Part shown: in pieces, positions 2,544-28,300 of the stretch
Position numbering within the stretch: the stretch's first letter is position 1
Layout of the letters: every line of letters begins with the position of its first letter
Made by a program: the position numbers and the translations under genes
Notes under the pieces: generated by a model
Databases searched by the model: none
What the model saw: the letters and a program-made list of their open reading frames with translations, nothing else
What the model was told of the DNA's origin: nothing
Source of the DNA: a virus
Lineage: Duplodnaviria; Caudoviricetes
Strand: one strand, 5' to 3'
Length of the DNA stretch: 54,763 nt
IMG/VR virus record: IMGVR_UViG_3300028394_000094
Location: 1 to 54,763 of that record

Positions 2544-2713
2544 CAACAATTCGGCATTAAGTACGCTAGAGTTAAGAGGTGGATTTAAGAAAATAGGTAA
2601 TCATTTGTACGGAATAGCAATATAAGGCGGCGTACAGTCCCTTAGACTAAAAGCCTTGGTGGTGGGGTAGTGGGTTAGTTCAAAGTAACTTTACTATTAA
2701 ATACTATCAAGGG

Positions 2714-2743
2714 TTGACAATCTATAACAAATTAAAGTAAAAT
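2714..2743 (+). promoter_or_regulatory. Sigma70-type early promoter P1
   Basis: TTGACA (2714-2719), 18 bp, TAAAAT (2738-2743); GAAA-loop hairpin at the predicted 5' end (2750-2773). Confidence 0.75.
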
Positions 2744-2813
2744 ATACTTAATGAATCGGGAAACTAATTCATTATTTAACTAAACCCTTAATATCTTAGA
2801 AAGGATATTTAAA

Positions 2814-3470
2814 ATGAAACAAGTAATTAAAACCCCTGTAACAATCAACCCTGTTATTGCATCAATGATTGCCCCTGTTATTGCCCCTGTTGTTACTGTA
2901 GGAAAATTCGATTTATTCCCTGTTAGTAACGATGTAAACAGCCCCTATGTTTTGGTATCTCAATTCGGTAAAAATGGTATTGAGCATGATGCTATTAAGT
3001 CTAAGATGCAAGATGTTTTATACGCAAATGGTTATCGTGCTTGTAATTTTGACCGAAGCGATAAAAGCGAAATTGCAATTAAATTTCACGATAGTATCAA
3101 ACAGTTGTTTATATCCCAAATGGATACACAAGCACAAGAGTTACTTGCTAAACCATTGGAAGGGTTAAACGATATGCAAAAAGCAATTAGAACTAACTTG
3201 TTAGAAAAGGTAGGCACATTGTTTGGTAACTTGCACAAGGCAATTAAGGCAATGGAAACGCCAAAGGTAGTAACCACTGAAACAACAGTATCAGGAAAAT
3301 TAGTACCTGTTACTGGCAATCAATTAGTATGCCGTACCATTATGGAACAAATTGTAAAGTTACAAGCAATCAAAACACCATGTGACAAAAATGTAGACAT
3401 TATTAAAACATTGCAATCAGTGGTTAAGATGTTTAATGATTGTGGAATTGTGGCATCGGTTAAAAAATAA
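2814..3470 (+). CDS. First early gene, hypothetical protein (218 aa), monocistronic
   Basis: AAGGA RBS, own promoter and tandem terminators; no recognised family. Confidence 0.8.
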   Translation: MKQVIKTPVTINPVIASMIAPVIAPVVTVGKFDLFPVSNDVNSPYVLVSQFGKNGIEHDAIKSKMQDVLYANGYRACNFDRSDKSEIAIKFHDSIKQLFISQMDTQAQELLAKPLEGLNDMQKAIRTNLLEKVGTLFGNLHKAIKAMETPKVVTTETTVSGKLVPVTGNQLVCRTIMEQIVKLQAIKTPCDKNVDIIKTLQSVVKMFNDCGIVASVKK

Positions 3471-3489
3471 CCTGTAGTATCTTTACTTT

Positions 3490-3541
3490 AAACCCTGAGC
3501 AATCAGGGTTTTTTTTCGCCCTAATTTTTAGGGCTTTTTTT
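3490..3541 (+). terminator. Tandem intrinsic terminators
   Basis: AAACCCTGA-GCAA-TCAGGGTTT+T-run (3490-3516), then GCCCTAA-TTT-TTAGGGC+T-run (3518-3541). Confidence 0.85.
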
Positions 3542-3593
3542 GGTTCAACATTTTATTAATAGTATATTTACTACCAACATCTTACCGAATGAT

Positions 3594-3731
3594 ACCAGTC
3601 ACCTTAGTAGCGTACCACATGGGATTCATTGGCTAGGTGTTATGCTGAGTTCAGCATAACATATTTTTCAAAGGTTTGTCGGCTTTATAGTAACTTTACT
3701 TTAAAAGAAACCAGTCACCTTAGTAGCGTAC
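3594..3731. repeat. 22-bp direct repeat pair enclosing a 24-bp palindrome
   Basis: ACCAGTCACCTTAGTAGCGTAC at 3594-3615 and 3710-3731; TGTTATGCTGA-GT-TCAGCATAACA at 3638-3661. Confidence 0.9.
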
Positions 3732-3743
3732 TGCACAGGATTT

Positions 3744-4018
3744 ATAAGTTCCAAATATTCTTGGAACTTTATGAGCAAAGTTCTTTTTTAAGTCGTTGAT
3801 TTATAAGCAAAGTTCCATAAGTTCCGAAAGTTCCGTGTTTTTTGAGGTATCTCCTACTTTTAAAATTTTAAAATATTTCGCAGGATTTCGACTCTCTAAT
3901 CGCAATGTAGCGAAATCCTCTATAAAGCAGGAACTTTCGGAACTTTCGGAACTTAACTGCAGAATCAATGACTTACAAACATAAAAAAAAGAACTTATAA
4001 AGAACTTTAGGAACTTTA
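3744..4018. repeat. Symmetric iteron array with flanking IHF-like boxes (candidate replication origin)
   Basis: AAGTTCC x3 at 9-bp period (3810, 3819, 3828) facing GGAACTT x3 (3930, 3939, 3948); inverted IHF-like boxes at 3789-3801 and 3963-3975; more copies at 3746-3769 and 3991-4017. Confidence 0.7.
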
Positions 4019-4081
4019 TAGGGGGTAGTAGAATACTTTAATAAACCTTACTAGGGTTTGATAAGCCTTACCACAAAACGC

Positions 4082-4110
4082 TTGACTTTACAAGGTATTT
4101 GTTGTAAAAT
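4082..4110 (+). promoter_or_regulatory. Sigma70-type early promoter P2
   Basis: TTGACT-17bp-TAAAAT; shares CTTGACTTT...TTGTTGTAAAATAGTAGT with P3; 5' leader hairpin GGAATTGAG/CTTAGTTCC (4118-4152). Confidence 0.8.
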
Positions 4111-4199
4111 AGTAGTAGGAATTGAGAAACACAAAACGAAGTGCTTAGTTCCCAAAGTTCTTTTATTTCATAGTAAGTTTACTTTCAAGGAGAATCAAA

Positions 4200-4340
4200 A
4201 TGGTCGTAAAAACTAATAGTCTTATGTTTAACCTATGCTCACTTATCCCTGCATCATGGAACATCATTCGGTTGTCGTATGTTCGTGTCGGTGATGATTA
4301 TCTCAACTATGCCGTAATCAAACTCGGTGGCTACAAATGA
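4200..4340 (+). CDS. Small hypothetical protein (46 aa, not in ORF track)
   Basis: AAGGAG RBS, MVVKTNSLMF...GGYK, ATGA overlap with next gene. Confidence 0.65.
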   Translation: MVVKTNSLMFNLCSLIPASWNIIRLSYVRVGDDYLNYAVIKLGGYK

Positions 4341-4543
4341 AAAACCATAGGACATTCTGCCGTATGTGTGGCGATGTAGTTGCTCATAAGCGTAGTGCTT
4401 TAGGTTATAAACTGTGCTTATTATGTGGTGACGAGATGGCACACCAAAGGAAGTTCACCATTGCCTGTAACAACAAGCAAGGTTACGAACTGATTACTGA
4501 CTTATCAATGCTTAAACAACTTAACCCAAAGAGGACAACATGA
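4337..4543 (+). CDS. Small zinc-finger-like protein
   Basis: CRMC...CLLC pairs; translationally coupled. Confidence 0.7.
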   Translation: MKNHRTFCRMCGDVVAHKRSALGYKLCLLCGDEMAHQRKFTIACNNKQGYELITDLSMLKQLNPKRTT

Positions 4544-4782
4544 AACAACATAAACGAACTACCCCATACGAAGGCGATGATATTGCCGAGTTCACCCATA
4601 ACAACAAGTTTCACCGTTCAACGGACGAGGCTTTCCGAACTGCCAATTACGCTAGTAGTTTCGAGGGTGATGCCGAGATGACGGATTGCAAACGCTTTAT
4701 CGGTGAGTTTGTGTTCGTATGTTTACCAGTAATCTTACTATTCGCCTATTTTATGTACCTGTTGTTAGGATGGTTAGCATGA
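4540..4782 (+). CDS. Small membrane protein
   Basis: GAGGA RBS; C-terminal hydrophobic helix. Confidence 0.7.
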   Translation: MKQHKRTTPYEGDDIAEFTHNNKFHRSTDEAFRTANYASSFEGDAEMTDCKRFIGEFVFVCLPVILLFAYFMYLLLGWLA

Positions 4783-5000
4783 AGAACGAACAAAAACAAA
4801 CCATAAAATCATGGCGATTTACCATTACTTGGTCAGATGGTAAAACCGAGGGTTTAGCCAGTTGTTTACCCGAGTATCTAGAAGAAGAATTGTTTATCTA
4901 CTTTAGAGAACTTGAAGACTTGCGTGAAGAGCATGATGCAGATATGCGTGATGAGCCATATAACTTTGAAGACGACACCGAAAAGGAGATTGAAGAATGA
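4779..5000 (+). CDS. Acidic hypothetical protein
   Basis: ATGA overlap at 4779 is the likely start (MKNEQK...). Confidence 0.7.
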   Translation: MKNEQKQTIKSWRFTITWSDGKTEGLASCLPEYLEEELFIYFRELEDLREEHDADMRDEPYNFEDDTEKEIEE

Positions 5001-5158
5001 AGGGCATCAAGGTAGGTGACATCGTGCGGTTATACAAGCGGACATTCTGTGTGCTAAACATCCTAACGGATTATGTAGAACTGCAGTCAATGGATGAGGA
5101 ACGGTGGTTTATTACTGTGCCTCGCACAAAACTAATTGGGATAAAGAAAGGGGTATGA
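4997..5158 (+). CDS. Small hypothetical protein (53 aa, SH3/KOW-like start KVGDIVRL)
   Basis: AAGGAG RBS, ATGA overlap; not in ORF track. Confidence 0.6.
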   Translation: MKGIKVGDIVRLYKRTFCVLNILTDYVELQSMDEERWFITVPRTKLIGIKKGV

Positions 5159-5159
5159 G

Positions 5160-5621
5160 ATGGGATATAGGTCAGATGTTGCGTATGTTATTAACTTTAA
5201 GAATCGTGAGGTAAGGGACGACTTCATTGCCTTAATCATGGCTAAAGGTGGCGAGGAACTAAAAGCCTTGAAAGAGTGCGTGATACCCGAGGTTACCGAT
5301 AGCGAACATGAGGAGGAAAGTACGGCACAGATTAACTTTTTTGCATACCATGTGAAATGGTATCGGTCATTCCCTGATGTTAAATCTCACCACAATTTAA
5401 TGGAGTTTGCAGTCAAACAGTTTGAAGGTGATGCCGACTACAAGTTTGTTGAAGTGGGGGAGGACGGAAAGACCGAAGAAGAGGATAGCGATGGTGAGTA
5501 TGTGCCACATGACGACTTCCATACTGTGGCTTATATAGAGACACCGTTCGAAAAAGAGTATAAGCCAGTAGGTGATGACATAAGGGTTATGTATAAGTAT
5601 CAAACATTATCAAACACTTGA
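5160..5621 (+). CDS. Hypothetical early protein
   Basis: 153-aa ORF in the coupled array (MGYRSDV...VKWY). Confidence 0.75.
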   Translation: MGYRSDVAYVINFKNREVRDDFIALIMAKGGEELKALKECVIPEVTDSEHEEESTAQINFFAYHVKWYRSFPDVKSHHNLMEFAVKQFEGDADYKFVEVGEDGKTEEEDSDGEYVPHDDFHTVAYIETPFEKEYKPVGDDIRVMYKYQTLSNT

Positions 5622-5646
5622 CTTTTGTGACAAGTTGTTGTAAAAT
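5618..5646 (+). promoter_or_regulatory. Sigma70-type early promoter P3
   Basis: TTGACT-17bp-TAAAAT, near copy of P2; IHF-like TATCAAACACTTG (5608-5620) overlaps the -35. Confidence 0.8.
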
Positions 5647-5697
5647 AGTAGTTAGAAGTAGAGAGAAAGTAATTAACTAACCATAAGGAGTATTACC

Positions 5698-6579
5698 ATG
5701 AATCAGTTGAATCTTAGTAACATTACTACCCAAACACCGAGTATATCCTCGAGTGCTATGTTGGTAGAGTTGAACATATCTGTGTGGACAGGTAGGAAGT
5801 TTGACAAGGGTGTATCTGCTGAAGTCGCTTTCAACAAGCAAGCCGATAACAATTCAGGGAACTATAACAAGAAGTTATTCCCTAACAACCCAACCTTTGA
5901 TGCCATTACCAAGTACGCAGGTAACGCACGAACATACCACTACCATGCGACTATGCCTTGGTCAGATTCGGGAGTAAGGTTACTTACGACTGCAATGTAC
6001 TTTGATTATGCCAAGGAGATTAGCCGTATGCAGATGGAGTTTGATGCCTTGGTCGAGGACTTCTTAAAAGATTATTACAACCTTGTGCAGTCTAGCCAAG
6101 TGAAACTAGGCACGATGTTTGATGCTACCGACTACCCCGATGTCGAAGATGTTAGGGCGAAGTATCGGTTCAATGTCAGGTACTCACCTGTACCCGAGGT
6201 AGGTGATTGGCGAGTCGATGTAGGTAACGATGCCTTGAAAGAGTTGGCACAGTCTTATGAGTTGGCATACCAACAGAATCTAGAGACTGCCTATAAAGAT
6301 GTTTGGACAAGAACACATGAAGCGTTGTCTCGGATGTCCGATAAGTTGGCAGGTAATAACAAGCAGATATTCAGAGACACACTAGTAAGTAATGTTACTG
6401 AGATGGTGGACTTGTTGGATAAGTTCAATGTCACAGGTGATGCCGAGATGAGAAAAGCCAAGGACTTAATCAGCGATGCCCTCATGGGTATTACACCTGA
6501 TGCCTTGCGTGAAGATACATACTTACGGCAAGAAACTAAGAGCAAGGTAGATGCGCTCTTAAAAGAGTTTAGTTGGTAA
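5698..6579 (+). CDS. DUF3150-like helical protein
   Basis: LVELNISVWTGRK N-terminus, YP...VRAKYRF motif; sits before AAA and vWA genes as expected for this family; family call from recall. Confidence 0.6.
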   Translation: MNQLNLSNITTQTPSISSSAMLVELNISVWTGRKFDKGVSAEVAFNKQADNNSGNYNKKLFPNNPTFDAITKYAGNARTYHYHATMPWSDSGVRLLTTAMYFDYAKEISRMQMEFDALVEDFLKDYYNLVQSSQVKLGTMFDATDYPDVEDVRAKYRFNVRYSPVPEVGDWRVDVGNDALKELAQSYELAYQQNLETAYKDVWTRTHEALSRMSDKLAGNNKQIFRDTLVSNVTEMVDLLDKFNVTGDAEMRKAKDLISDALMGITPDALREDTYLRQETKSKVDALLKEFSW

Positions 6580-6623
6580 TCGTAGCAAAATATAAACACA
6601 TACACACATAAGGAGTATTACAA

Positions 6624-7739
6624 ATGAGCAATGCGAAAGTCGCAGTATCCCTAGAGTCTATCTATGCCCAAACGATTGATGAGATTGTCGAGGGTTTGTT
6701 GGTAAACGGTAGTAAGGTTACTACCTTGGTTCGTGGTCACATGGGTTCGGGGAAGTCATCAATCCTCAAGATATTAGCAGAGAAGTTACCTACCCATATC
6801 CCATGCTACTTTGACTGCACTACCAAGGACTTGGGTGACTTGATGATACCGAAAATCCTAGACATCGGTGACGATACACAGTTTGTTAGGTTCGTACCTA
6901 ACGAGGAGTTGGGCTTCCATCATAACAAGCCTGTCATCTTAATGGTTGACGAGTTCGGTAAGGCTAACCCATCGGTTAAGAACGGCATGATGCGTGTTAT
7001 GTTAGAGCGTACACTTGGCAGTAAGAAGTTACACCCTGATAGCATTATCTTTGCTACCACTAACCTAGGGGGCGAGGGAGTTGGTGACTTGTTACTACCT
7101 CATCATCGCAACCGTATAACTGTAGTACAGATGAAGAAGTCTACTACTACACAATGGATAGAGAACTACGCTTACAACGCAGGGATACATCCTGCCATGA
7201 TTATGTGGGTAAAAGATAACGAGCAGTTGGGACAGTCTTATGAGGATGTGCCGAATCCTGCTGACAATCCGTATATCTATCACCCTGCCGTACAACGCAC
7301 ATCGTTCTTTACATGGCGAAGTGCCGAGTTAGCATCGCATTGGTTATGGGCTAAGGATAAGATAAGTAACAATACTTTGATGGGTGCGTTGGTAGGTACG
7401 ATAGGTGACCGTAGTGCATCGGACTTGAAAGCGTTTATCACCTTGGTAGATGACTTACCCAAGCAACAAGAGATTAAGGATAACCCTGATACGGCAAGAG
7501 TACCAAGCAAGGCATCGGCAGTAATGATGACAGTACACAAAGCGTTGGCTACCATTGATAAGACATGGATAGATTCTTGGATGGTTTACCTTAACAGGTT
7601 AGACAAAGAAGCCCAACAGGTATTCGTAGGACAGGTACGCAACCCGAAGTACACCAAGCAGAGTATGGTGATGGGCAATGCCAAGTTCCGAGATTGGTGT
7701 GTTGAGAATAACTATATGTTTACTGCAGATAAAGTTTAA
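6624..7739 (+). CDS. AAA+ ATPase (MoxR/CobS-like)
   Basis: Walker A GHMGSGKS, Walker B LMVDEF, sensor ATTN, arginine-finger region HRNR. Confidence 0.85.
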   Translation: MSNAKVAVSLESIYAQTIDEIVEGLLVNGSKVTTLVRGHMGSGKSSILKILAEKLPTHIPCYFDCTTKDLGDLMIPKILDIGDDTQFVRFVPNEELGFHHNKPVILMVDEFGKANPSVKNGMMRVMLERTLGSKKLHPDSIIFATTNLGGEGVGDLLLPHHRNRITVVQMKKSTTTQWIENYAYNAGIHPAMIMWVKDNEQLGQSYEDVPNPADNPYIYHPAVQRTSFFTWRSAELASHWLWAKDKISNNTLMGALVGTIGDRSASDLKAFITLVDDLPKQQEIKDNPDTARVPSKASAVMMTVHKALATIDKTWIDSWMVYLNRLDKEAQQVFVGQVRNPKYTKQSMVMGNAKFRDWCVENNYMFTADKV

Positions 7740-7750
7740 GGAGAAAGAAA

Positions 7751-8923
7751 ATGTTAGCAATCGGTAAGAAGTTAACCCCTGAGCAACGACTCATCAAGGG
7801 GACGGGCGACATCATCGGTAACGATACTTATGTTGCGTTGGCAGGTGTTCTAATGATTGGTACTAAGCAGATTAGCACCAAGACAAAGACGGCTTGTACT
7901 AATGGTAGGGACGAAGCATACAACCCCGACTTTATGGACAAGTTAACAGATGCAGAGTTTAGGTTTGTAGTACTGCACGAGTGCTACCACAAGATGTATC
8001 AACACTTAACAATCTATCGTGACTTAGATGCGATAGACCACAACAGGGCGAATCGAGCGTGTGACTATGTTATCAACCTCAAGTTGATGGACGAGGACAA
8101 CACAGGCTTTATTAAACTACCGAAGTGTGCGTTGTATAACACACAGTATCGTGGCATGAGTGCAAGGGAAATCTTTGACTTGTTACCCCCAAGCGAGGAC
8201 GATGATGGTGATGGAGAATCACCGTTTGATGACCATGATTGGGAAGGTGCTGAGAAGTTATCAGATGAGGAGAAGGGTGACCTCGCCAAGCAGATTGATG
8301 AAGCCGTCCGCCAAGGTTCGATACTTGCAGGGAAACTAGGTAGTGGGGGTAATCGTACTTTCGATGACCTGTTAGAAACTAAACAGAACTGGAAAGAACT
8401 ACTGCGTGACTTTGTGACAACAACTTGTACAGGTAAGGACTACTCAACATGGAAACGCCCTAGCCGTAGATACATCGGGGCTGACATCATCATGCCATCA
8501 GGCATCAGTGAAACTATGGGTGAGATATTAGTAGGTATCGACACATCAGGTTCTATCGGGGGAGAAGAACTGGCTTCGTTTATGGCTGAGATAAAGGGAG
8601 TCTGTGAGCAAGTTAAGCCAAGCAAAGTAAGATTACTTTATTGGGATACGGCAGTATGCCGAGAGGAGATTTACTTGCAGGATGAACTTGATACCTTAAC
8701 ACAAAGCACTAAACCTGCAGGGGGTGGGGGTACAGATGTGGTATGTGTACCTGCGTACATGGCGGAACATAGCATCAAGCCTGAGTGTGCCATCATCTTA
8801 ACAGATGGTTACTTAGGTGGCGACTGGGGTACATGGACTGTACCACTACTGTGGGTTATCTTAGATAACAAGGGTGCGAGACCGACAGCAGGGACAACTA
8901 TTCACATTAACACAAGGGGGTAA
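7751..8923 (+). CDS. HEXXH metallopeptidase-like + vWA domain protein (DUF2201-like)
   Basis: TACTNG, VLHECYH, N.A.DYVIN; C-terminal MIDAS DTSGS, GGGT, LTDG. Confidence 0.85.
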   Translation: MLAIGKKLTPEQRLIKGTGDIIGNDTYVALAGVLMIGTKQISTKTKTACTNGRDEAYNPDFMDKLTDAEFRFVVLHECYHKMYQHLTIYRDLDAIDHNRANRACDYVINLKLMDEDNTGFIKLPKCALYNTQYRGMSAREIFDLLPPSEDDDGDGESPFDDHDWEGAEKLSDEEKGDLAKQIDEAVRQGSILAGKLGSGGNRTFDDLLETKQNWKELLRDFVTTTCTGKDYSTWKRPSRRYIGADIIMPSGISETMGEILVGIDTSGSIGGEELASFMAEIKGVCEQVKPSKVRLLYWDTAVCREEIYLQDELDTLTQSTKPAGGGGTDVVCVPAYMAEHSIKPECAIILTDGYLGGDWGTWTVPLLWVILDNKGARPTAGTTIHINTRG

Positions 8924-8924
8924 C

Positions 8925-9080
8925 ATGAAAGGAAACTACAAAAGATTTACAACCGTAGGTACAGGGGGCATCAACTGTAGGTGTTGTTGCAATCGTGGTG
9001 GTAAGCCGTTGGCTAAGAGATTAGCCAAGCGTAAGTTAGAACAAGCAATTAAAAAACTAATCAAGGAGGTGTTGGAATGA
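8925..9080 (+). CDS. Small basic Cys-rich protein
   Basis: AAGGGGG RBS before ATG 8925; INCRCCC followed by K/R-rich helix. Confidence 0.65.
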   Translation: MKGNYKRFTTVGTGGINCRCCCNRGGKPLAKRLAKRKLEQAIKKLIKEVLE

Positions 9081-9247
9081 TAGCAACTTGTATAGAACAG
9101 AATGACAACAAGTCTCATGTGTTGCATGAGGTGCGTAACACAATAGACGGCAAAGAATATCGGTTCATTGTAAATGCCGAGTGTCCGATGACTGCGATAA
9201 AGATAGCACATGAAGTTCCATTAACTTATTGGGAGGAAGTGAGATGA
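9077..9247 (+). CDS. Small hypothetical protein (56 aa)
   Basis: AAGGAGG RBS, ATGA overlaps at both ends; not in ORF track. Confidence 0.65.
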   Translation: MIATCIEQNDNKSHVLHEVRNTIDGKEYRFIVNAECPMTAIKIAHEVPLTYWEEVR

Positions 9248-9426
9248 CTGAAGATATAACATTCGCACAAGCTAAAAAAGATTTAAGGGCATACATAAAG
9301 TTAGTAAAAAAAGAACGAGCTATTTGGGACAGACGAACCAAGACGCACAGAAAAGAGTTGTTACGGCTTTGTGGGATATATATGAATTTAGAAGTTATTA
9401 AGGAGAAGGAGAGTAATAATGGATAA
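9244..9426 (+). CDS. Small hypothetical protein
   Basis: GGAGG RBS, ATGA overlap at 9244. Confidence 0.65.
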   Translation: MTEDITFAQAKKDLRAYIKLVKKERAIWDRRTKTHRKELLRLCGIYMNLEVIKEKESNNG

Positions 9427-9595
9427 AGATACAAGCCTTGAAGATTTTCACAATGCTAATGAGCAAGAGAAACTAAGCATTATGTTTGATTCGTTTATGA
9501 AACTTATAAGGGATGGTATTGAGAAAGGTGAGTCAGATAAAACTATTAGAAACTATGCTCGATTGGCGAGTGAAATTTACTTTAGCGAGGATTAA
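9419..9595 (+). CDS. Small hypothetical protein (58 aa)
   Basis: AAGGAG RBS; MDKDTSLEDF...; not in ORF track. Confidence 0.6.
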   Translation: MDKDTSLEDFHNANEQEKLSIMFDSFMKLIRDGIEKGESDKTIRNYARLASEIYFSED

Positions 9596-9772
9596 ATGAT
9601 TAACGAAAAGTCGTATCAGATATTAGCAGTAGACATACTAGGAAACACCGAGGTGGTATGTACTTGTTTAACCTATGACATAGCCGAGAACTTATTGTTT
9701 AAGTTACAAGAGGGTGATGATAAGTTTAGTCCATGTGCATACACGATAGAGGAGATTACTAATGAAGGGTGA
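9596..9772 (+). CDS. Small hypothetical protein (58 aa)
   Basis: GAGGA RBS; MINEKSYQIL...; not in ORF track. Confidence 0.6.
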   Translation: MINEKSYQILAVDILGNTEVVCTCLTYDIAENLLFKLQEGDDKFSPCAYTIEEITNEG

Positions 9773-9953
9773 GGATAAGATATTCCTATTAGAAGCGTAC
9801 CATGCGTTGAATGGTAACGAAAGAACTAGGTGGAGATTCCAACTGGATAAAGGTAAGAACGCAAGGTTAGTACAAATGAGCAAGACATATAGTAAAGAGG
9901 AGTTTAACGAGGAAGTTATTAAGATAAAGGAGTTGTGCAATGAACAGATATAG
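9762..9953 (+). CDS. Small hypothetical protein
   Basis: GAGGAG RBS, coupled array. Confidence 0.65.
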   Translation: MKGEDKIFLLEAYHALNGNERTRWRFQLDKGKNARLVQMSKTYSKEEFNEEVIKIKELCNEQI

Positions 9954-10128
9954 AGTATTCGTATCGGGGTATGCTTACACAGAAGTCGATGCACCCAACG
10001 CTGAAGAAGCCGAGGTGTTAGCAAAGAAAAACATAGTAAGCGAGAGGTTCGGGATATGGGATATGCAGATGTCCTTTACTTGTGATGAGTCAGATTTACT
10101 TGAGGAGAATGTAAATGAAAAAGTTTAA
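9940..10128 (+). CDS. Small hypothetical protein (EVDA.NAEEAE motif)
   Basis: AAGGAG RBS; motif typical of small phage early proteins. Confidence 0.65.
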   Translation: MNRYRVFVSGYAYTEVDAPNAEEAEVLAKKNIVSERFGIWDMQMSFTCDESDLLEENVNEKV

Positions 10129-11014
10129 TTCGTTTAATGATGTAGCAAAATGTTATGCCGAAACTATTCCAATCAGGGGTAAGAAAAAGCCTTTGGATAT
10201 TCGTCCGATAGGAAACCGTAGGTATGATTGGAATCGTATCATTAAGTTTGACGAGAATACATACGCATTGACTGATGGGTACTGGACTAACACCGACCCA
10301 ACTCAAAGATTTGGCGATGAAGATACTAAGAAGTTATGTCCTGTTTTATGGGAACGCAAACCCGATGGTGACTACATGACTTTACATACTCATTTGACGA
10401 ATCATTGTGCCGTCTCTAGGTATTGGTTCATTCAGAGTTACATACCTGATGGGTTTGACTTTAATTGGTATTCACAAACAGGTAAACACTTTATCAAGTA
10501 CAAGGGTGTCGATTACTATCTGCCGAAATCTAAAGCTAAGATAGACTACGGCAATAGAATTATAGAGTTTAAGGAGTATCACAGATTGATATTCAAATAC
10601 GAAGCCGATAGTAACTTTACTAGGGTTGGTGATAAGAACTTATGTACAACTAGACGGCTTGATAAATCTTTGACTAAGGAGTATAGACCGTATATTAAAA
10701 AGTTCTTTGAGTATATGCAGATAATGTTGCCTGTGTTTGGGGGTACGCTAGGGTTACGAGATACCAAAGATAACTATGCACAACAGTTGGATGCAGGGAA
10801 TAGTTGGTACTGGAGTAAATATGTAGAGCCGATGCTTGTAAGAGATATCCTAAAAGATGTTGACCATGAGAATCACATAGCGTTGGCGGTCCTGTGTGCC
10901 AATGAGGTTGGCATGACAAAAGATAGTAGGTTTGTATGTAGTGAAAAGAGTTTGAGCAATCTAAATGCGTTGTTCAATCGTATCGGTGGTTTTTATGCTA
11001 AGGAGGAAATGTAA
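10115..11014 (+). CDS. Hypothetical protein (299 aa)
   Basis: GAGGAG RBS; long ORF; no recognised family. Confidence 0.8.
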   Translation: MKKFNSFNDVAKCYAETIPIRGKKKPLDIRPIGNRRYDWNRIIKFDENTYALTDGYWTNTDPTQRFGDEDTKKLCPVLWERKPDGDYMTLHTHLTNHCAVSRYWFIQSYIPDGFDFNWYSQTGKHFIKYKGVDYYLPKSKAKIDYGNRIIEFKEYHRLIFKYEADSNFTRVGDKNLCTTRRLDKSLTKEYRPYIKKFFEYMQIMLPVFGGTLGLRDTKDNYAQQLDAGNSWYWSKYVEPMLVRDILKDVDHENHIALAVLCANEVGMTKDSRFVCSEKSLSNLNALFNRIGGFYAKEEM

Positions 11015-11015
11015 A

Positions 11016-11978
11016 ATGGGAATGAATCCTAACCCTGTATATGAAGTTAAGGAGATGTTGTCCGACCCAAGAAGTCCGATTGAACCTGTAGAAGGTTGGC
11101 AATTCTTTGTAGACGGCATCCCTGTATCAAGGGAGTTGCATGATTTTGTTGAAGGGTTTAACAAGATACATAGGGGGTTGAAGTATTGTCTAGCGGAGAG
11201 TAAGAATTTACACTTTGAAAATGATGACAAACTAGTTCGTCTTGCTAAGACCTTGTATATATACCGAGATAATGTGCCGTTCATCTATGGTGCAATAGGG
11301 TATGGTGACTATTCGCTTACTAAGAGTGCTACAAAAAGCTATATGGTATTTAGTCGTAAGATTACAAACGATAAATACAATAAGCATAATGTACAACACC
11401 GAATGTCATTGACTATAAACCTAGGTACGGCTTTGAAAAATGCCTCTAAGTGTATCTCACCGTACACATCAGCAGAGATTGCCAAGTATTACTTTAAGTT
11501 CCCTCAAGACAAGGTACGAGATGTTGTATACGAAGCCAAGCATAGTCTAGGAAAAATCATTGAACCAGTACGCTCAAGTGCCGAGACGAGTACATTCGTG
11601 GACGAGATGATATACCTGATTGATAGTGGGGTGGAGTTTAAGAATCAGGCTTTCATGGAGATGGCTAAAGAGTTAAAGGATAAGGCTAACACTTTACGAG
11701 AGTTACAGAACCGCAAGGTAGGGCTAACCTTTGTATCGTTTAAGCACGGTACAAATGTATCGGTTGAGATGTTAGATGTAGAGAATGTAAACAACCTACC
11801 TATCTACGAGCATAACTTTTTAAACTATGCAAGTAATGTTACTACTTGTAGTATGGAGAACCTACCAGAAGCCATTTCAAGTAGAGTAGCAGTCCTTAAT
11901 ATCTTATCTGATAAACAGTATGTTGAGCGGGTGGGTATGAAGATAGATGACAACACATTTTGGGTAGAGAGAGGGTAA
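11016..11978 (+). CDS. Hypothetical protein (~320 aa)
   Basis: AAGGAGG RBS supports ATG 11016; C-terminus (LPEAI..RVAVL...VERVG....NTFWV) resembles that of the next gene. Confidence 0.8.
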   Translation: MGMNPNPVYEVKEMLSDPRSPIEPVEGWQFFVDGIPVSRELHDFVEGFNKIHRGLKYCLAESKNLHFENDDKLVRLAKTLYIYRDNVPFIYGAIGYGDYSLTKSATKSYMVFSRKITNDKYNKHNVQHRMSLTINLGTALKNASKCISPYTSAEIAKYYFKFPQDKVRDVVYEAKHSLGKIIEPVRSSAETSTFVDEMIYLIDSGVEFKNQAFMEMAKELKDKANTLRELQNRKVGLTFVSFKHGTNVSVEMLDVENVNNLPIYEHNFLNYASNVTTCSMENLPEAISSRVAVLNILSDKQYVERVGMKIDDNTFWVERG

Positions 11979-11979
11979 G

Positions 11980-12396
11980 ATGATAAACGATATTGGGGAG
12001 AACCTAAAAAACTTTAAGGTATGGGCAGGGATAATGTCCGACTTGTTTGGTAGGGGTAACGAGAAGATGTTTGGTAGTACAGGTAGTAACTTGATGACAA
12101 GATACTTGGATATGGTTACTAACAAACCTATATATCGTATTCAACTCCATGAGGATAGTTCGAATGTAGAGACTATGTGCTATGACTTGATGGATGGTTT
12201 TAGTCCGAAGTTAAATAAATTTTATGAAAGTGTTGACGAATTACCAAAATGGGTGCAAGATACATTATCTGTGTTAATGGTAGTAGACCATACTAAAGTA
12301 AATCAGGAGATTGAAAAGGTTGGCAGAAGAATTAGTAGAGATGTGTTTTGGGTTTATGATAGGGATGAAGAAGATGGCATCAACACCCGAAGTTAA
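11980..12396 (+). CDS. Hypothetical protein, C-terminus similar to the preceding gene
   Basis: LPKWVQDTLSVL...IEKVGRRISRDVFWV. Confidence 0.75.
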   Translation: MINDIGENLKNFKVWAGIMSDLFGRGNEKMFGSTGSNLMTRYLDMVTNKPIYRIQLHEDSSNVETMCYDLMDGFSPKLNKFYESVDELPKWVQDTLSVLMVVDHTKVNQEIEKVGRRISRDVFWVYDRDEEDGINTRS

Positions 12397-12700
12397 AGTG
12401 AAGAAGGTAGTGCGTCAAGTCCTTGATGGGCTTGGTGCGTATTATGTAATGCCTGTAACGAATGGGTATGGGAACTCGGGTGCGCCTGATTTCCTTGTCT
12501 GTTTGCAAGGGAGATTTATCGGCATCGAATGCAAGGCAGGTAAAAACAAACCAACTGCTTTGCAAGAACTTAATCTCAAAAAGATTAGAGATGCAGGAGG
12601 AGTAGCACTAGTAGTAAATGAAACTAATGTAGTTAACTTAAACAGTCTTTTATCAGGAGAGAGAAATGAAGACACAATCAGTAGCAGGAAGAGTCCTTGA
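12374..12700 (+). CDS. VRR-NUC domain nuclease (PD-(D/E)XK)
   Basis: PE..VK...GAPDFL...FIGIECK...PTALQ...I..AGG. Confidence 0.85.
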   Translation: MASTPEVKVKKVVRQVLDGLGAYYVMPVTNGYGNSGAPDFLVCLQGRFIGIECKAGKNKPTALQELNLKKIRDAGGVALVVNETNVVNLNSLLSGERNEDTISSRKSP

Positions 12701-13070
12701 AGTATTAATTAGTCAAGGCGGTAAGACACCTAAACAACTCAATGAAATATTGAAGGTTAAAGGTAATAGTGTATATACGGCATTATCACAACTCAGGGCT
12801 AAGAAGCGGATAGCGAGGGACGAGGATGGTGTATACATCACCCAAACTCAGACTAGCATAACACCAGTAGTGCCAGTAGTAAATGCTCGCACCAAAACAG
12901 ACGCACTTACCATTAACAAGTTAAGGAAAGAAGTTGAAGAATTAGACAAGTGGTGTTTGTTATGGCGAGAGAAGTATGATGCGTTAGAAAAGACTAAGGA
13001 CTTGCTGAACGAGAAATACCTAGATAGCAAGGCAGTCATCGCCTATCTAGAAAAGAAACTAGAGAAGTAA
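12666..13070 (+). CDS. Winged-HTH plus coiled-coil protein, putative regulator
   Basis: VLEVL...KTPKQLNEIL...SVYTALSQLRAKKRI; GGAGAGAGA RBS. Confidence 0.6.
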   Translation: MKTQSVAGRVLEVLISQGGKTPKQLNEILKVKGNSVYTALSQLRAKKRIARDEDGVYITQTQTSITPVVPVVNARTKTDALTINKLRKEVEELDKWCLLWREKYDALEKTKDLLNEKYLDSKAVIAYLEKKLEK

Positions 13071-13084
13071 TTTTACTATTAACA

Positions 13085-13107
13085 GGGTGCGACTACGCAC
13101 CCATTTT
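13085..13107 (+). terminator. Stem-loop, possible weak terminator ending the early block
   Basis: GGGTGCG-ACTA-CGCACCC followed by ATTTT. Confidence 0.5.
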
Positions 13108-13835: not shown

Positions 13836-14098
13836 GCAGACCTAAATGGAATACAGACAAGACCGAACTCACCTATAAAGATGGTAGCAGATGGTTGAAG
13901 GAAACTTTTAACAAAGACTTGAACTTAATCAAGCGTACAACATCTTGGGGTGAGTGGACTGAGCATGAGTATGTTGAGAAAGGTAAAGCCAAGGGTAGGA
14001 TAGCGGTGATACGCAATAGCGAAGGCTTGGTTAAAAAGTTTTCGTATGATGCAAGTGGTAGACTTCAAAGTAGTAAAGGTACTGAGGAGGTAATATGA
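13832..14098 (+). CDS. Small YD/RHS-repeat-like protein
   Basis: Beta-hairpin repeats, e.g. FSYDASGRL. Confidence 0.55.
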   Translation: MSRPKWNTDKTELTYKDGSRWLKETFNKDLNLIKRTTSWGEWTEHEYVEKGKAKGRIAVIRNSEGLVKKFSYDASGRLQSSKGTEEVI

Positions 14099-20644: not shown

Positions 20645-21052
20645 ATGGAAAATGAAGGAGTATCAATAGAATCACTTACCCGTGTTTACATCAAGATGCG
20701 GACTAAGAAAGAAGAAATGAACAAGGAACTTGAAGCTAAAATATCTGAACTTGAGGAAAAGATGAGAACTGTAAAAACAGCGATTCTTGAACACATGAAG
20801 GATGTTGGTGCCGAAAGTATTAGAACAGAGTCGGGAACTGTATATCGCACAGTATTAACACGCTATACGACAAACGATTGGACTTCTATGCACAAGTTTA
20901 TCCTTGAACATGAGGTGCCTGATTTATTGGAGAAGCGGTTGCAACAAACCAATTTGAAGGCTTTTTTAGAAGAGAATCCGGACATAATACCCCCCGGACT
21001 TAACGCTAACAACGAGTATTCAGTTACAGTAAAAAGGAGTAAAAATGGTTGA
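20645..21052 (+). CDS. Conserved replication-module protein (N-terminal coiled coil)
   Basis: GGAGAGAGA RBS; SIRTESGTV...DW..MHKFI...LLEKR...PPGL. Confidence 0.75.
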   Translation: MENEGVSIESLTRVYIKMRTKKEEMNKELEAKISELEEKMRTVKTAILEHMKDVGAESIRTESGTVYRTVLTRYTTNDWTSMHKFILEHEVPDLLEKRLQQTNLKAFLEENPDIIPPGLNANNEYSVTVKRSKNG

Positions 21053-21311
21053 TGATGCTTATGTCCCCATTGAAAAAGTAGCCGAACACTTTGCGGTGTC
21101 AGTTTCTACCGTAAGGACTTGGATACGAAACGAGGACATACCTGCCTTGAAGTTAGGAGGAATCTATCGCTTTAAGTTGTCTGAAGTAGAAGCGAAACTT
21201 CGTAACACAGAGGTAAGTGTTCCCCAAGAAGTAGCAATAGCAGTAGAAAAAGCAGTAAAAGAGCCAGTACAACTGGAATTTGATTTTAGCAATCCTGACA
21301 AGGATATTTAA
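21045..21311 (+). CDS. Excisionase/MerR-like HTH DNA-binding protein
   Basis: IEKVAEHFAVSVSTVRTWIR...IPALKLGGIYRF. Confidence 0.85.
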   Translation: MVDDAYVPIEKVAEHFAVSVSTVRTWIRNEDIPALKLGGIYRFKLSEVEAKLRNTEVSVPQEVAIAVEKAVKEPVQLEFDFSNPDKDI

Positions 21312-25320: not shown

Positions 25321-25392
25321 ACAATCACTCTCTCTCCGATTGTAAATGTAGTGCTCCTTCACTTTGCCCCCGCCCTTGCGGGGGATTTTTTT
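25321..25392 (+). ncRNA. Candidate anti-Shine-Dalgarno small RNA
   Basis: Three hairpins with pyrimidine loops ACUCUCUCUCC, CUCCUU and CCUU, the last being the terminator; loops complementary to phage RBSs. Confidence 0.65.
25367..25392 (+). terminator. Intrinsic terminator at the convergence point
   Basis: CCCCCGC-CCTT-GCGGGGG-ATTTTTTT. Confidence 0.85.
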
Positions 25393-28300
25393 AGTTGTAT
25401 GCGGCGATGTTATCTAGCATCTCTTGTTCTAACTTCTTACTGTATTGAACACCATTTACCATCCGTTTACTTGCGTCAAGGAATGCACGACTTGATCTTT
25501 CAAATGTTTCTGCATTAATACCAAGACCCGGATGTTTACGATTAAGTTCCATTAATTTTTCTTTAGCTTCTTCTCTAGCCTCAACATCGCCAACACGGTC
25601 AGAAATGTTATAGCGTTGTAACAGTTTATTTTTCTCATCAAGAATTGCTTTTTCAATACCTTTGTTTTTAGCATTGATTGCTTGTTGTAAAGACAACTCA
25701 GCGGGGGTAAACCCTAATGCTTGTGCACCTATACTAAAGATACTGAAATCTTCAATCATTGGGTCACCACGCATTGTCGTAGCGCCCTCGGTACCGTACC
25801 GGAAACTCTTCATAGCGTTACCTAAGAAAGACGGAAGTATATCTTCAATACCACGTTCTATATTGCCTTCTTGTATCTTGCTTAACCCACGCATAATTTT
25901 AGAACCCGCACCGTAAGCTGGTCCGCCAAAGGTTTGTAAGAACGCATCTTGGAATGTTGCAGATTGAGATGTTGGGTTTGTTCTAAATATTAAATCACTT
26001 AAACCAATACGTCCGGCAACATCTAATCCAGTAATTTCATTAATCAAACCTTTGTATACAAACTCACCAATATATTTACGGGTTGCAGTTTCAAAGTCAT
26101 CTTCGTCATCATCTGCAAACAAGTTGTATACCATAGCAGCCATACCAAACATTGGTACCCCTTGTAGTCCTGAGAACAACGCAGCGGTACCATATATACC
26201 AGCAATTTGTCGCATAGCAGCTTTCTTCACCTCTTTATCTTGGTTTTGCAAAGCATCTCTTGTAATTTTAAATAGTAAATAGTACATGGATACCCCGTAC
26301 CCTTTGTACATAAACAGCACCTTACCTAAAGCATTTTTAGAAATAAGCGGTGCGTTACCTGCGGCTATATTACCGTTTGTTAATTTAGCTACATCTACAG
26401 CGTATCTGGCGGCAGCGTCTTCAGCTGCTTGACCCTTAATACCTTTACCGTGTAATTTAGCTAACTGTAAATTATATGCAGCCATTAAAGATATTTCACG
26501 ATTCATACGGTCAGCGTGATGAAACGCCCAGCCGGAAGTAGTATTTATTGTGTTAAGAATATTTTTACGCCCGTCAACTTCAAGCACATCATAGAATGAG
26601 GAACGGTTTAACTGTCCTTCTCCCGCTGCCAAATCATACAAAGTTTTTAACCTTCTAATTTCGGCAGGTAATTTAGCATTGTCAAAGTCGTAATTGCTCA
26701 TAGACGGCATAGCTTTACCAGTAACTTTTTCTTTACTACCAATCATCTCTGCGGTTTTAGCATACCCACTAGCAAAAAATGCTCTTCTAGCCGCACCTAC
26801 TTCTTTTATTGTATCTGTCCAACTATGGTCTCCGGCTAGATATGGCATTACTACCATTGGCAACTGCGCTAACTGCACAACTGCCGAGGACACGTTAAAC
26901 CCTAATTGATAGTTAAAAGTAAGTGTGTTAACAAGGTTAGCTGTTTTTGTTATGATATTGTTATTGTTCGCACTATTTGCGGCAATATGCTTTTCAAATA
27001 TTTTTATGTATTCATTAACTAGTTTATTATCTTTAGCGTCAGTACCCTTAGTCATCGCTTTAGATAATGTCTTCATGTCCGACATTAACTTGTTAATCTT
27101 TGCACCGTATATCATCCTACCAACTTGTTGAGTTGTACTATACAACCGGTCCCGTAGCGCTTCTACAGCATCCTCTTTGTAACCTAACACGTTTTGACGT
27201 TTTCTAAATGACTGAGCAAAAGATGTTTCCGGCAACGTACTAATGTATAGACGCATTACTTCTTCGGAGTTTTCTTCGTATTTTTCTAACGCTGCTTTAT
27301 GTTTTTCTTTTTGATTAGCCGTAGCATTATCGGGTAGTTTAGGTTTGTTGCTCTCTAATACTTGCAACACTTTATTAACAAAACTTCCTGATGGCGCACG
27401 GGTATATTGATACTCAGCTAGTTTAGAAAACTGCTCAATGTTAGAAGCACCTTCTTTTTTAAGTTCTTCTATGGCTCTAGTGCGAGCACGTTCATATTCA
27501 AACGCTTCGATATAAGTTTCTACCTGCCCACTTTTATCTCTCATGTTATACGACAACCAGTAATTACCTTTACGAGTTAAGGCAAAGTAAGGCTCAATCT
27601 TACCTTGTGCAACTAATTTAGCCATAATATCGGATTTAATTTTTGCTTTAATAGTGTCGTCTACGCTAAAGGTTTCAATTCTTTCATTGATTGCCCTAAC
27701 AATTTCATTGTATGTAGCGCTGTAAGCATTACGCATATCAACATATAACTTCTTACCAGACCCACTTAATCTGTTGTACTCGGCTTTTACCTTGTTGTAA
27801 TTTGCATCCCAAGTTTTATCTTTTTGCGTAGCCTCTGGATAATCTGTTTTTTCTTTAGTTGGGTCGGCTTTGCTTGTTGTACTACCGTATACAACAGAAT
27901 TAAATAATTTAACCATCTCAGGAGTTGCTTGTTTAACCCACGCTTCAGCCCTACGAACTAGCGGTTCAATTTTTTCATTTTGTCCGTTAATATATTGAGA
28001 TTGCTCGTCAATTAATTTACCAATGCCTGTAGCACCTTTTAACCCAACCCGTTCAGCTTCCATACCCAGCACATTAACAGGCAGGGAAGAAAGGATTGCA
28101 GTTAGTGCGTTGCCGAATACACCTTTCTTAAGTACCTCATGTAATGCGTTTGCACGGTTCTGATTCATAAACGGTGCGTTAGCTATCTTATCTATAAACC
28201 CATCAAATATAGATTGAGCATCTTCACCTGTAACTCCCGGAACATTGGGTTTATTACGAAGCGTAGCTTGTTGTTTCTCTACAGTTTCTGTATTTTTTGA

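Follow-up and report, generated by a model that had tools for sequence, protein, structure and literature searches.

The phage genome deposited as IMG/VR virus record IMGVR_UViG_3300028394_000094, analyzed here over its entire length of 54,763 bases (the window), carries 12 exact copies of the short palindrome AGTAANNTTACT in the first part of its plus-strand (+) arm. These palindromes are real, binding-site-like signals under selection. They represent one version of an element that recurs at the same place across a family of related phages in a sequence peculiar to each lineage. The motif changes together with the first gene of the arm (gene 1), which therefore probably encodes the reader. 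The explanation that we favor, with about the same chance of being right as of being wrong, is that the palindromes are duplex-DNA sites for a symmetric dimer of a phage protein, most likely the gene 1 product, that would regulate transcription of the early arm.

Palindrome copies in the window

Against the 12 exact copies (Table 1), 100 dinucleotide shuffles averaged 0.20 copies with no more than 2 in any one, and a reversed-pattern control gave 0 copies in the window. As a first-pass annotation of this DNA had stated, no exact copy lies outside positions 2684-13077 of the 54,763 bases, and the arms are longer at two sites (GGTAGTAAGGTTACTACC at 6711 and AAAGTAAGATTACTTT at 8626). Sites with at most one mismatch total 20, against 5.19 ± 2.39 expected. 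The eight one-mismatch copies comprise four in or beside the region (Table 1) and four elsewhere (37925, 46000, 49404, and 50851); the annotation had listed six of them and overlooked 46000 and 50851. All 12 exact copies fall within 10.4 kb, or 19% of the window, for which a hand calculation gives 0.19^12, ~2e-9. Their centers show no consistent orientation.

When gene starts were re-called on the basis of ribosome-binding sites, the placement agreed with the earlier description, with eight copies inside open reading frames (ORFs) (copies 4 to 11), one on a stop codon (copy 12), and three in noncoding DNA (copies 1 to 3). Protein sequence and codon usage do not explain the coding copies: 2,000 codon-preserving shuffles of 22 ORFs averaged 0.498 copies and peaked at 4, and none reached the 9 observed, a count that represents eight sites with the one at 4728 counted twice, in two overlapping ORFs. 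The 12-bp site translates as Ser-Asn/Lys-x-Thr or Val-x-Leu-Leu and is easy to accommodate in a protein. In the relative L005, a separate record 94% identical to the window (84 to 98% nucleotide identity by block), all 11 alignable copies are kept, and the sole substitution within any of them falls in the free central pair. The window is unusual in its family in having eight of its 12 copies well inside genes, away from their starts.

A family-wide element with lineage-specific sequence

The viral collection holds at least 470 stretches encoding relatives of the window's AAA protein. The best 80 of 470 were taken with their flanks and, together with the window and the cultured phage Pra-JY27, made up a set of 82 sequences. 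A palindrome of their own, with at least four perfect copies with 6-nucleotide (nt) arms in the same region, was found in 65 of the 82. Only L005 (12 copies), L011 (9), L027 (7), L026 (5), and L016 (4) have the exact window motif in abundance, and nearly all other relatives have a different over-represented palindrome at the same place. Aligned on their centers, the variants conform to (T)GTTAG-xxx-(1-4 nt)-xxx-CTAAC(A) or to GTAG...CTAC, in which the outer block is common across lineages and the inner bases and center are lineage-specific. Most of the 346 unique copies span 16 to 20 bp overall, with palindromy extending to 8 to 9 nt per arm. The window and L005 have a shortened 12-bp version with only the inner 5+5 bases fixed, and a flanking T/A pair completes TAGTAA-NN-TTACTA at three of the 12 window sites.

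Copies within a genome are nearly uniform, with 367 perfect and 43 one-mismatch unique copies in the family. Between phages, the motif can differ even where the AAA proteins are almost identical. This one phage family contains about 20 motif classes, whose distribution on the AAA-protein tree needs 31 changes against a minimum of 20. Five near-complete relatives carry 7 to 11 copies, all in the + arm and starting 1.5 to 3 kb from the terminase gene, with none in the late arm. Pra-JY27 has 19 copies of GTTCA-N3-TGAAC, 16 of them GTTCAG-N-CTGAAC. Of the 19, all but one are spread over 30 kb of the + arm, the exception being in an intergenic gap of the late arm. Set against the deposited annotation, 12 of these are fully intergenic, four overlap the last codons of the upstream gene, and three are intragenic; for eight copies, the center is 29 to 30 nt before the next ATG. 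The confinement to the early region described in the first-pass annotation thus stands for the window and the five near-complete relatives, but in G005, G001, and Pra-JY27 the copies extend to the replication genes. Term searches of PMC9599517 and bioRxiv 10.1101/2019.12.14.876532 found neither these palindromes nor promoters mentioned, and nothing relevant emerged from literature searches on Pag-Yong1/MinM2/Pra-JY27, on DUF3150, or on conserved palindromic intergenic elements of early genes.

Position relative to genes and promoters

The family copies are tied to gene starts. The center lies 20 to 50 nt upstream of a Shine-Dalgarno sequence and start codon in 141 of the 367 unique perfect copies (38%), compared with 146 of 1,835 random positions in the same regions (8%). 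Several slots are conserved: 39 of 64 genomes have a copy before the AAA gene, 58 of 63 have one at the 5' end of the DUF3150 gene, and 27 of 55 have one before the VWA gene. The DUF3150 copy sits past the start codon, within an N-terminal tail of variable sequence and ~10 codons short of the conserved motif PSISSSAM, and this position holds in lineages with quite different palindromes.

Promoters in the relatives were taken as sigma-70-like sequences with at least 10 of 12 matches (n = 115), and the distance of the nearest palindrome center to the predicted start was recorded for each. This center falls at +40 to +60 for 25 promoters, at +60 to +100 for 18, and at -100 to -40 for 16, several of which are the promoter directly ahead of gene 1. 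Because only two of the 115 centers lie between -40 and +20, the copies are neither promoters nor promoter-overlapping operators, which bears out the initial view that they are not classic operators. They occupy leaders, gaps between cistrons, and the region upstream of the first promoter. The same annotation had proposed that the palindromes mark a region. Its observations of dimer-site behavior and one-arm clustering hold, but the family-wide tie of the copies to gene starts and promoter leaders leads us to favor control of gene expression over pure region marking.

Gene 1 as the candidate reader

The + arm opens with gene 1, which is preceded by its own near-consensus promoter P1 (11 of 12 matches) and followed by two or three terminator-like hairpins. 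A palindrome lies ~60 nt upstream of the start of the gene 1 promoter in the window, as it does at the promoters listed for several relatives. Two pairs of close relatives single this gene out. L043 and L034 are 92.7% identical over the DNA aligned up to the start of the arm and ~89% identical after it. Their palindromes differ (TGTAGTGAcTCACTACA versus TGTTAGTCagtgACTAACA) and occupy matching positions (9048/9048, 9941/9939, 11086/11080, 11659/11657, and 13065/13063), and the only nonhomologous gap is the first-gene slot (7282-7896 in L043; 7155-7763 plus a 92-amino-acid [aa] ORF in L034). Likewise, L058 and L050 have different palindromes at 97.4% and 94.7% identity, and their only gap, 7289-7992 versus 7401-8014, is gene 1 in both.

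The association extends to the 49 genomes with a motif, a gene 1 homologue, and an AAA gene, which form 1,176 pairs. All 20 pairs with gene 1 identity of at least 40% share the motif. Among pairs with AAA proteins at least 90% identical, the motif differs in all three with gene 1 identity below 40% and is the same in all 13 with at least 40%. In the diverged gene 1 pairs (766 below 45% identity, 52 same-motif), those with the same motif are most alike at window residues 114-149, with similarities of 0.52 and 0.48 versus 0.33 and 0.29. These residues make up the family's only conserved stretch, K..KRYWQQQIGSR..DF...L.KRE. The residues that follow QQQ.G correspond to the inner half-site, IGA[RK]..D[FY] going with GTTAGTG, S.[YF].K with TAGTC, GSK.KDL with GTTAGGG, and GSEFAYY with TTAGTA, as judged by eye among related sequences, with no correction for shared ancestry. 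QQQ is lost in lineages with an outer GTAG; the window protein, which has NLLEKVGTLFGNL here, has lost it too, just as the outer GTT is lost from the window sites.

Two close homologues of the window's gene 1 product, P0015 and P0017, both on short contigs, carry an N-terminal HTH_17 domain. In P0017, the separate HTH_17 protein of the window is matched at 86% identity by residues 6-68, and gene 1 is matched at 56% by residues 99-260. Such a natural fusion of the gene 1 core with a DNA-binding domain fits a DNA-directed role. The separate HTH_17 protein of the window has an acidic C-terminal PD(K/D)DI tail.

Gene 1 had been named as a possible binder in the first-pass annotation, and the swap pairs, the pair test, and residues 114-149 all indicate that its allele changes with the motif. 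The two helix-turn-helix (HTH) candidates named alongside it fared differently, for neither recognition helix tracks the motif. The winged-HTH and coiled-coil protein at 12666-13070, from a widespread family, has a near-identical helix in L082, L047, and L058, which have three different motifs, and the HTH_17 protein at 21045-21311 has the same recognition helix in six genomes with different motifs. Two further ideas were set aside: ORFs 10115-11014 and 10965-11978 gave no Pfam or PDB match as a split polymerase, and a likeness of gene 1 to phiC31 repressor/DUF3102 families (Atlas, score 0.79) was not borne out when 42 members were scanned against Pfam. In Pra-JY27, the first ORF shows no detectable homology to gene 1.

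Table 1. Coordinates of palindrome copies, predicted promoters, and associated features in the window
Feature	Position	Strand	Remarks
Copy 1, AGTAACTTTACT	2684..2695	.	Noncoding; center ~61 nt upstream of predicted P1 start
P1, sigma-70-like TTGACA-18-TAAAAT, 11/12	2714..2743	+	Ahead of gene 1
Gene 1, 218 aa	2814..3470	+	First + arm gene; candidate palindrome-binding protein
One-mismatch copy AGTATCTTTACT	3476..3487	.	3 nt before terminator-like hairpin 3490-3511; perfect in L005
Two terminator-like hairpins with T runs	3490-3511, 3518-3534	+	After gene 1
One-mismatch copy AGTATATTTACT	3561..3572	.	
Copy 2	3689..3700	.	Noncoding; downstream of terminator-like hairpin 3637-3662
P2, sigma-70-like TTGACT-17-TAAAAT, 10/12	4082..4110	+	
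Copy 3	4172..4183	.	P2 leader, ~60 nt past predicted start, 16 nt before ATG 4200
Copy 4	4728..4739	.	Within overlapping ORFs 4540-4782 and 4719-5000
P3, sigma-70-like TTGACT-17-TAAAAT, 10/12	5618..5646	+	Ahead of DUF3150 gene
Copy 5	5716..5727	.	DUF3150 gene codons 7-10; slot kept in lineages with different palindromes
Copy 6	5973..5984	.	Within DUF3150 gene
Copy 7	6388..6399	.	Within DUF3150 gene
Copy 8	6711..6722	.	Within AAA ATPase gene; arms extend to GGTAGTAAGGTTACTACC
One-mismatch copy AGTAACAATACT	7365..7376	.	
Copy 9	8626..8637	.	Within DUF2201/VWA gene
Copy 10	10610..10621	.	Within ORF 10115-11014
Copy 11	11832..11843	.	Within ORF 10965-11978
Copy 12	13066..13077	.	On stop of 12666-13070; 8 nt before terminator-like hairpin 13085-13102
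One-mismatch copy AGTAAAGGTACT	14072..14083	.	Directly ahead of ATG 14095
HTH_17 protein, 88 aa	21045..21311	+	DNA-binding domain fused to gene 1 core in P0015 and P0017

Proposed mechanism

In the mechanism that we envisage, the host RNA polymerase would transcribe gene 1 first, from the sigma-70-type P1, as a transcription unit of its own because terminators follow it. The gene 1 protein would read each half-site by its K/R/Q-rich helix (window residues ~114-149) and would fill the 12 sites, which lie ~60 nt upstream of P1, in the P2 and P3 leaders, and along the later operons. Bound at least 40 nt inside transcription units, it would modulate the elongating host polymerase. We favor a Cro-like or stoperator-like roadblock, through which the early arm would be turned down as the gene 1 protein builds up, because a phage without its own polymerase cannot stop the host enzyme globally and needs gene-specific control. 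As a second option, the sites might load an antitermination factor for passage through the terminators that follow gene 1 and copy 12. The near-sites at 3476 and 3561 and the sites at 3689 and 13066, which flank terminators, fit either. From these comparisons we infer the binding by the gene 1 protein, its dimeric state, and the direction of control.

A bolder proposal, which we regard as doubtful, is that gene 1 founds an undescribed class of sequence-specific DNA binders that time the whole early program of a large group of uncultured, polymerase-less lytic phages from ~10 sites in promoter leaders and before genes. A single K/R/Q-rich helix (KRYWQQQ-IG-xxx) would then read a bipartite half-site, with QQQ reading the conserved GTTAG and the next three to six residues reading a re-targetable inner part. 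The protein would act on the elongating host polymerase, either by blocking its path or by loading an antitermination state, and natural allele swaps would change the "regulatory immunity" between coinfecting relatives.

Several observations weigh against a dimer of the gene 1 product as the regulator. The protein matches no Pfam, PHROG, or PDB family and has no recognizable DNA-binding domain, and the slot protein of L034 is only weakly family-like (hhalign E 0.031). Many of the 13 same-motif pairs with near-identical AAA proteins may be one phage sampled twice. A genome and its nearest neighbor by gene 1 share the motif in only 28 of 49 cases (the corresponding counts are 21 for AAA and 25 for DUF3150), and over the whole protein the partial correlation of gene 1 identity with motif distance is weak (-0.17) and not above that of other genes. 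The swapped blocks include flanking noncoding DNA, plus the second small ORF in L034, and because they carry this extra DNA, linkage instead of causation is possible. The proposal also has to account for ~10 dispersed sites changing together after an allele swap. The spacer is off by one base among copies in nine of 65 genomes, which suits a rigid dimer poorly; a loop would tolerate such variation, and so would a flexible dimer. Lastly, the eight window copies away from gene starts suit a density requirement as well as they suit regulation.

Alternative explanations

The same sites might act at the RNA level, as hairpins of the early transcripts read by the gene 1 protein in nut/boxB fashion or as processing or stability signals, which we consider unlikely. 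Lambda N is a first-expressed, fast-evolving protein with a basic helix, and its boxB is read as RNA through the loop, with two copies per genome. Much here is reminiscent of N and nut: gene 1 comes first, evolves fast, and has a K/R/Q-rich helix that tracks the motif; lineage-specific dyads lie tens of nucleotides downstream of some early promoters (the 25 of 115 at +40 to +60) and in gaps directly ahead of ribosome-binding sites; there are terminator-like hairpins to pass after gene 1 and copy 12; and a loop accommodates the spacer variation. However, copy 1 is upstream of P1, hence outside its transcript, as are its equivalents in relatives (the 16 of 115 nearest centers at -100 to -40), and the mismatches point elsewhere. 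The family has 43 unique one-mismatch copies versus three in a reversed-arm control. Most of their mismatches break pairing (T/C 11, G/A 9), with no bias toward wobble on the sense strand (GT/TG 8) over the antisense strand (AC/CA 6). Many of these copies are hybrids of half-site variants used elsewhere in the family (e.g., TTAGGG with CACTAA), and in L067 and L068 the half-sites TGTTAGTCG and TGTTAGCCG swap freely between arms, giving C/A or T/G mismatches in both orientations. Free loops on fixed arms, in 7 to 19 copies, are the reverse of boxB. In several lineages the center is fixed and itself palindromic (AATT, AGCT, or ACGT), which points to duplex DNA because a loop would have no reason for palindromy. 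The window hairpins are marginal, with stems of 4 to 5 bp, minimum free energies of -0.5 to -2.6 kcal/mol at seven of 12 sites (the best, -8.7, at 6711), and at two of 12 a best RNA fold that differs from the site's own hairpin. Compensated double changes (19 versus 17 in the control) come from too few sites. Mismatch patterns and interchangeable half-sites thus agree with the earlier suggestion of a dimeric-protein site with a free center, and we favor a dimer on double-stranded DNA over an RNA or DNA hairpin.

A role outside transcription control is somewhat harder still to credit. A phage or ejected protein might protect, condense, ratchet in, or organize the first-entering DNA in the manner of ParB/parS or matS. 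All window copies do lie in one arm adjoining the probable leading end, at ~1-kb spacing and with eight of the 12 inside genes, as though density outweighed exact position, and the window encodes a 2,593-aa polyvalent protein of the ejected kind. The link of the family copies to gene starts and leaders speaks against it, as does Pra-JY27, whose copies span 30 kb of the + arm with one in the late arm, and no ParB-like or other known organizer turned up among the proteins scanned, a subset of the ORFs. It is very improbable that the palindromes are signals for recombination or cassette shuffling, that is, short identical repeats at gene boundaries aiding the exchange of early genes, for which the promoter/stem-loop cassettes of T4-type phages are a precedent. 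In its favor are the many small variable ORFs with copies on their flanks, the mosaic early arm, and the near-complete identity of copies within a genome (the 367 perfect versus 43 one-mismatch copies), but a lineage-specific sequence would impede exchange between lineages, the breakpoints of the two swaps were placed near the repeats and not demonstrably in them, and copies inside conserved genes are also selectively kept. Recombination is possible as a side effect.

Two more readings were weighed. Boxes for the host SOS repressor LexA or sites for another host regulator, arrayed for a response or for titration, come into consideration because the palindrome of the nearest clade (GTTAGTAAtaTTACTAAC in G004, L026, and L027; gtTAGTAAtgTTACTAACA in L011) equals, letter for letter, the LexA box of Xanthomonadales, TTAGTA-N4-TACTAA, listed as the experimentally validated TTAGTArwawTACTAa in Table 5 of PMC2248561; the window 12-mer is its inner part. 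We nonetheless hold this to be improbable. The motif follows a phage gene, and not a plausible change of host, and switches with that gene between phages with nearly identical AAA proteins, and the ~20 other variants in one phage family are well above the known turnover of LexA motifs. A phage LexA DNA-binding domain was not found in five genomes. Exact TTAGTANNNNTACTAA occurs in 49 of 401 sampled Gammaproteobacteria, mostly not above the reversed control; in the five of these 49 that were checked, no site adjoins a lexA-type gene, and PF01726 matched in one. Across the whole genome collection, only 40 stretches contain TGTTAGTGNNNCACTAACA, none of them with several dispersed copies, and in five genomes checked none of the bacterial sites was beside an S24 peptidase gene. 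Two of its loci were inspected: in L120 it directly follows a gene end, and in L119, a metagenome-assembled genome of Lewinella, three tandem copies of TTGTTAGTGTCCCACTAACAAAAAAGCC, the palindrome of one phage lineage, lie 44 to 45 nt apart at 5740-5850. Single copies related to the latter occur in three Aquiflexum/Algoriphagus genomes, one of them directly after the stop of a 491-aa ORF; bacterial copies of this type are probably unrelated to the phage element. Least probable of all is that the palindromes are N4-like hairpin promoters, used by a phage RNA polymerase that is injected or made early. The genome layout is like that of N4, the AAA and VWA genes resemble gp24 and gp25, the giant protein is the last late-arm gene, and relatives have 6- to 8-bp arms with 3- to 4-nt centers directly upstream of genes. 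Yet PF00940 had no match at E ≤ 1 in the window, G001, G002, G004, G005, or Pra-JY27, in a search whose control found N4 RNAP2 and, weakly, the N4 virion polymerase; the profile of the giant protein had no PDB sequence match; strong host-type promoters stand ahead of the operons; and the conserved DUF3150 site is downstream of a start codon. N4 promoter hairpins have a 5- to 7-bp stem and a 3-nt loop with conserved bases, whereas the centers here are free or palindromic, and the first 20 kb of the N4 record contains no such multicopy palindrome.

Phage group and other features of the window

The window genome has two divergent arms. The first part of the + arm (2814-25308) holds small ORFs, the DUF3150, AAA ATPase, and DUF2201/VWA genes, and more genes of unknown function, and its later part holds DNA polymerase A, an exonuclease, a helicase, the HTH_17 protein, and a primase; the minus-strand (-) arm holds structural genes, the large terminase, and the 2,593-aa polyvalent protein. 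No DNA-level match to a cultured phage was found. By AAA protein, the nearest cultured phages are N4-like (~23% identity, "N4 gp24-like"); by terminase, they are HTVC023P-type pelagiphages (44 to 47%); and by DUF3150 protein, they are Pag-Yong1, Pra-JY27, and MinM2 (27%), three 65,014-bp records that represent the one cultured relative of the group and, in Pra-JY27, have the gene layout of the window. HTVC027P, whose terminase is only distantly similar to that of the window, has neither an AAA nor a DUF3150 gene and no comparable palindrome; it lacks an RNA polymerase gene (PMC12753301). The AAA ATPase and VWA/DUF2201 pair (window 6624-8923) resembles gp24/gp25 of N4 (9938-12306 in the N4 record L107), and the two-arm layout parallels that of N4; N4-type polymerases are not detectable.

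The 2,593-aa protein (25391-33172, - strand), the last gene of the late arm, has matches to HATPase_c_3 at residues 929-1031 and LPD39 at 1691-1835, a HExxH motif in the consensus of five homologues, and a C-terminal 750 aa resembling DarB-like giant proteins. It looks like an ejected polyvalent protein, and sequence profile searches found no polymerase domain in it. Between the gene 1 terminators and P2, the noncoding stretch 3740-4030 contains many direct and inverted GGAACTTT/AAGTTCC repeats, which resemble iterons and may mark a replication origin. A direct repeat of ~22 nt, ACCAGTCACCTTAGTAGCGTAC (~3593-3620 and 3709-3736), lies at the same distance past the near-site at 3561 and the site at 3689. 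Two small genes gave no Pfam match. One (4337-4543) encodes a 68-aa CxxC...CxxC zinc-finger protein with homologues in 32 of the fetched loci and a resemblance to TraR/DksA-type polymerase-binding proteins. The other (12320-12700) encodes a well-conserved 126-aa protein with 49 to 72% identity in five relatives and a PD...E.K pattern (GAPDF...GIECKAG) of a kind typical of VRR-NUC or Holliday-junction-resolvase-like nucleases. In the relative G003 (C1:43976-46414), the large terminase match falls in two pieces ~880 nt apart within one 819-aa frame, which suggests an in-frame insertion such as an intein.

Comparison with known systems and significance

Cluster A mycobacteriophages of the L5/Bxb1 type have stoperators, which are asymmetric, point along the direction of transcription, and are recognized by a monomeric immunity repressor (PMC9283540, PMC6550527). 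They occur in many phage-specific copies along transcription units, often in short intergenic gaps, where the repressor stops the elongating host polymerase, and site and protein diverge together (PMC9283540, PMC6550527, PMC4351075). The phages described here similarly have many short dispersed sites (12 in the window, 7 to 19 in relatives). Unlike stoperators, these are symmetric and without consistent orientation, the candidate binder does not detectably resemble any known repressor, and no integrase turned up among the proteins scanned. Closer in form are the 17-bp dyad repeats of Cluster O mycobacteriophages, TGTTCGGNNNCCGAACA, with more than 30 copies genome-wide and a function stated to be unknown. 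Those repeats have perfect 7-bp inverted arms around a free 3-bp center, are nearly invariant per genome, and are found between genes, 5' of genes, and within genes, in phages with no obvious temperate character (PMC4351075). Our family has the same pattern of arms and center, near-invariance, mixed positions, and an outer TGTT...AACA in common, the window version having 5-bp arms and a 2-bp center; it differs in sequence (consensus TGTTAG...CTAACA), in confinement to one arm, and in hosts and phage family. For the Cluster O repeats, no binder was put forward from comparative evidence.

A third parallel is the Cro/CI system of lambdoid phages, in which the product of the leading gene of an early operon reads, as a dimer, palindromes of 14 to 18 bp differing between otherwise near-identical phages, the alleles swap as a block by recombination, and Cro lowers early transcription in lytic growth. 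Lambda operators sit on promoters beside the repressor gene and move with it, whereas here ~10 sites avoid promoter cores and are spread over 10 kb of conserved genes. The phages described here are lytic-looking, with symmetric sites dispersed off promoter cores and a candidate reader from a new protein family.

Almost no regulation has been described in phage groups known only from metagenomes, and for this one the cis element and its candidate reader form a testable pair. The role of the dispersed perfect palindromes in these lytic-looking phages may also provide an answer to the Cluster O puzzle. The main value of the comparative evidence is that it points to a specific reader and to natural specificity swaps, with L043 versus L034 and L058 versus L050 providing such swaps for a code of protein-DNA recognition.

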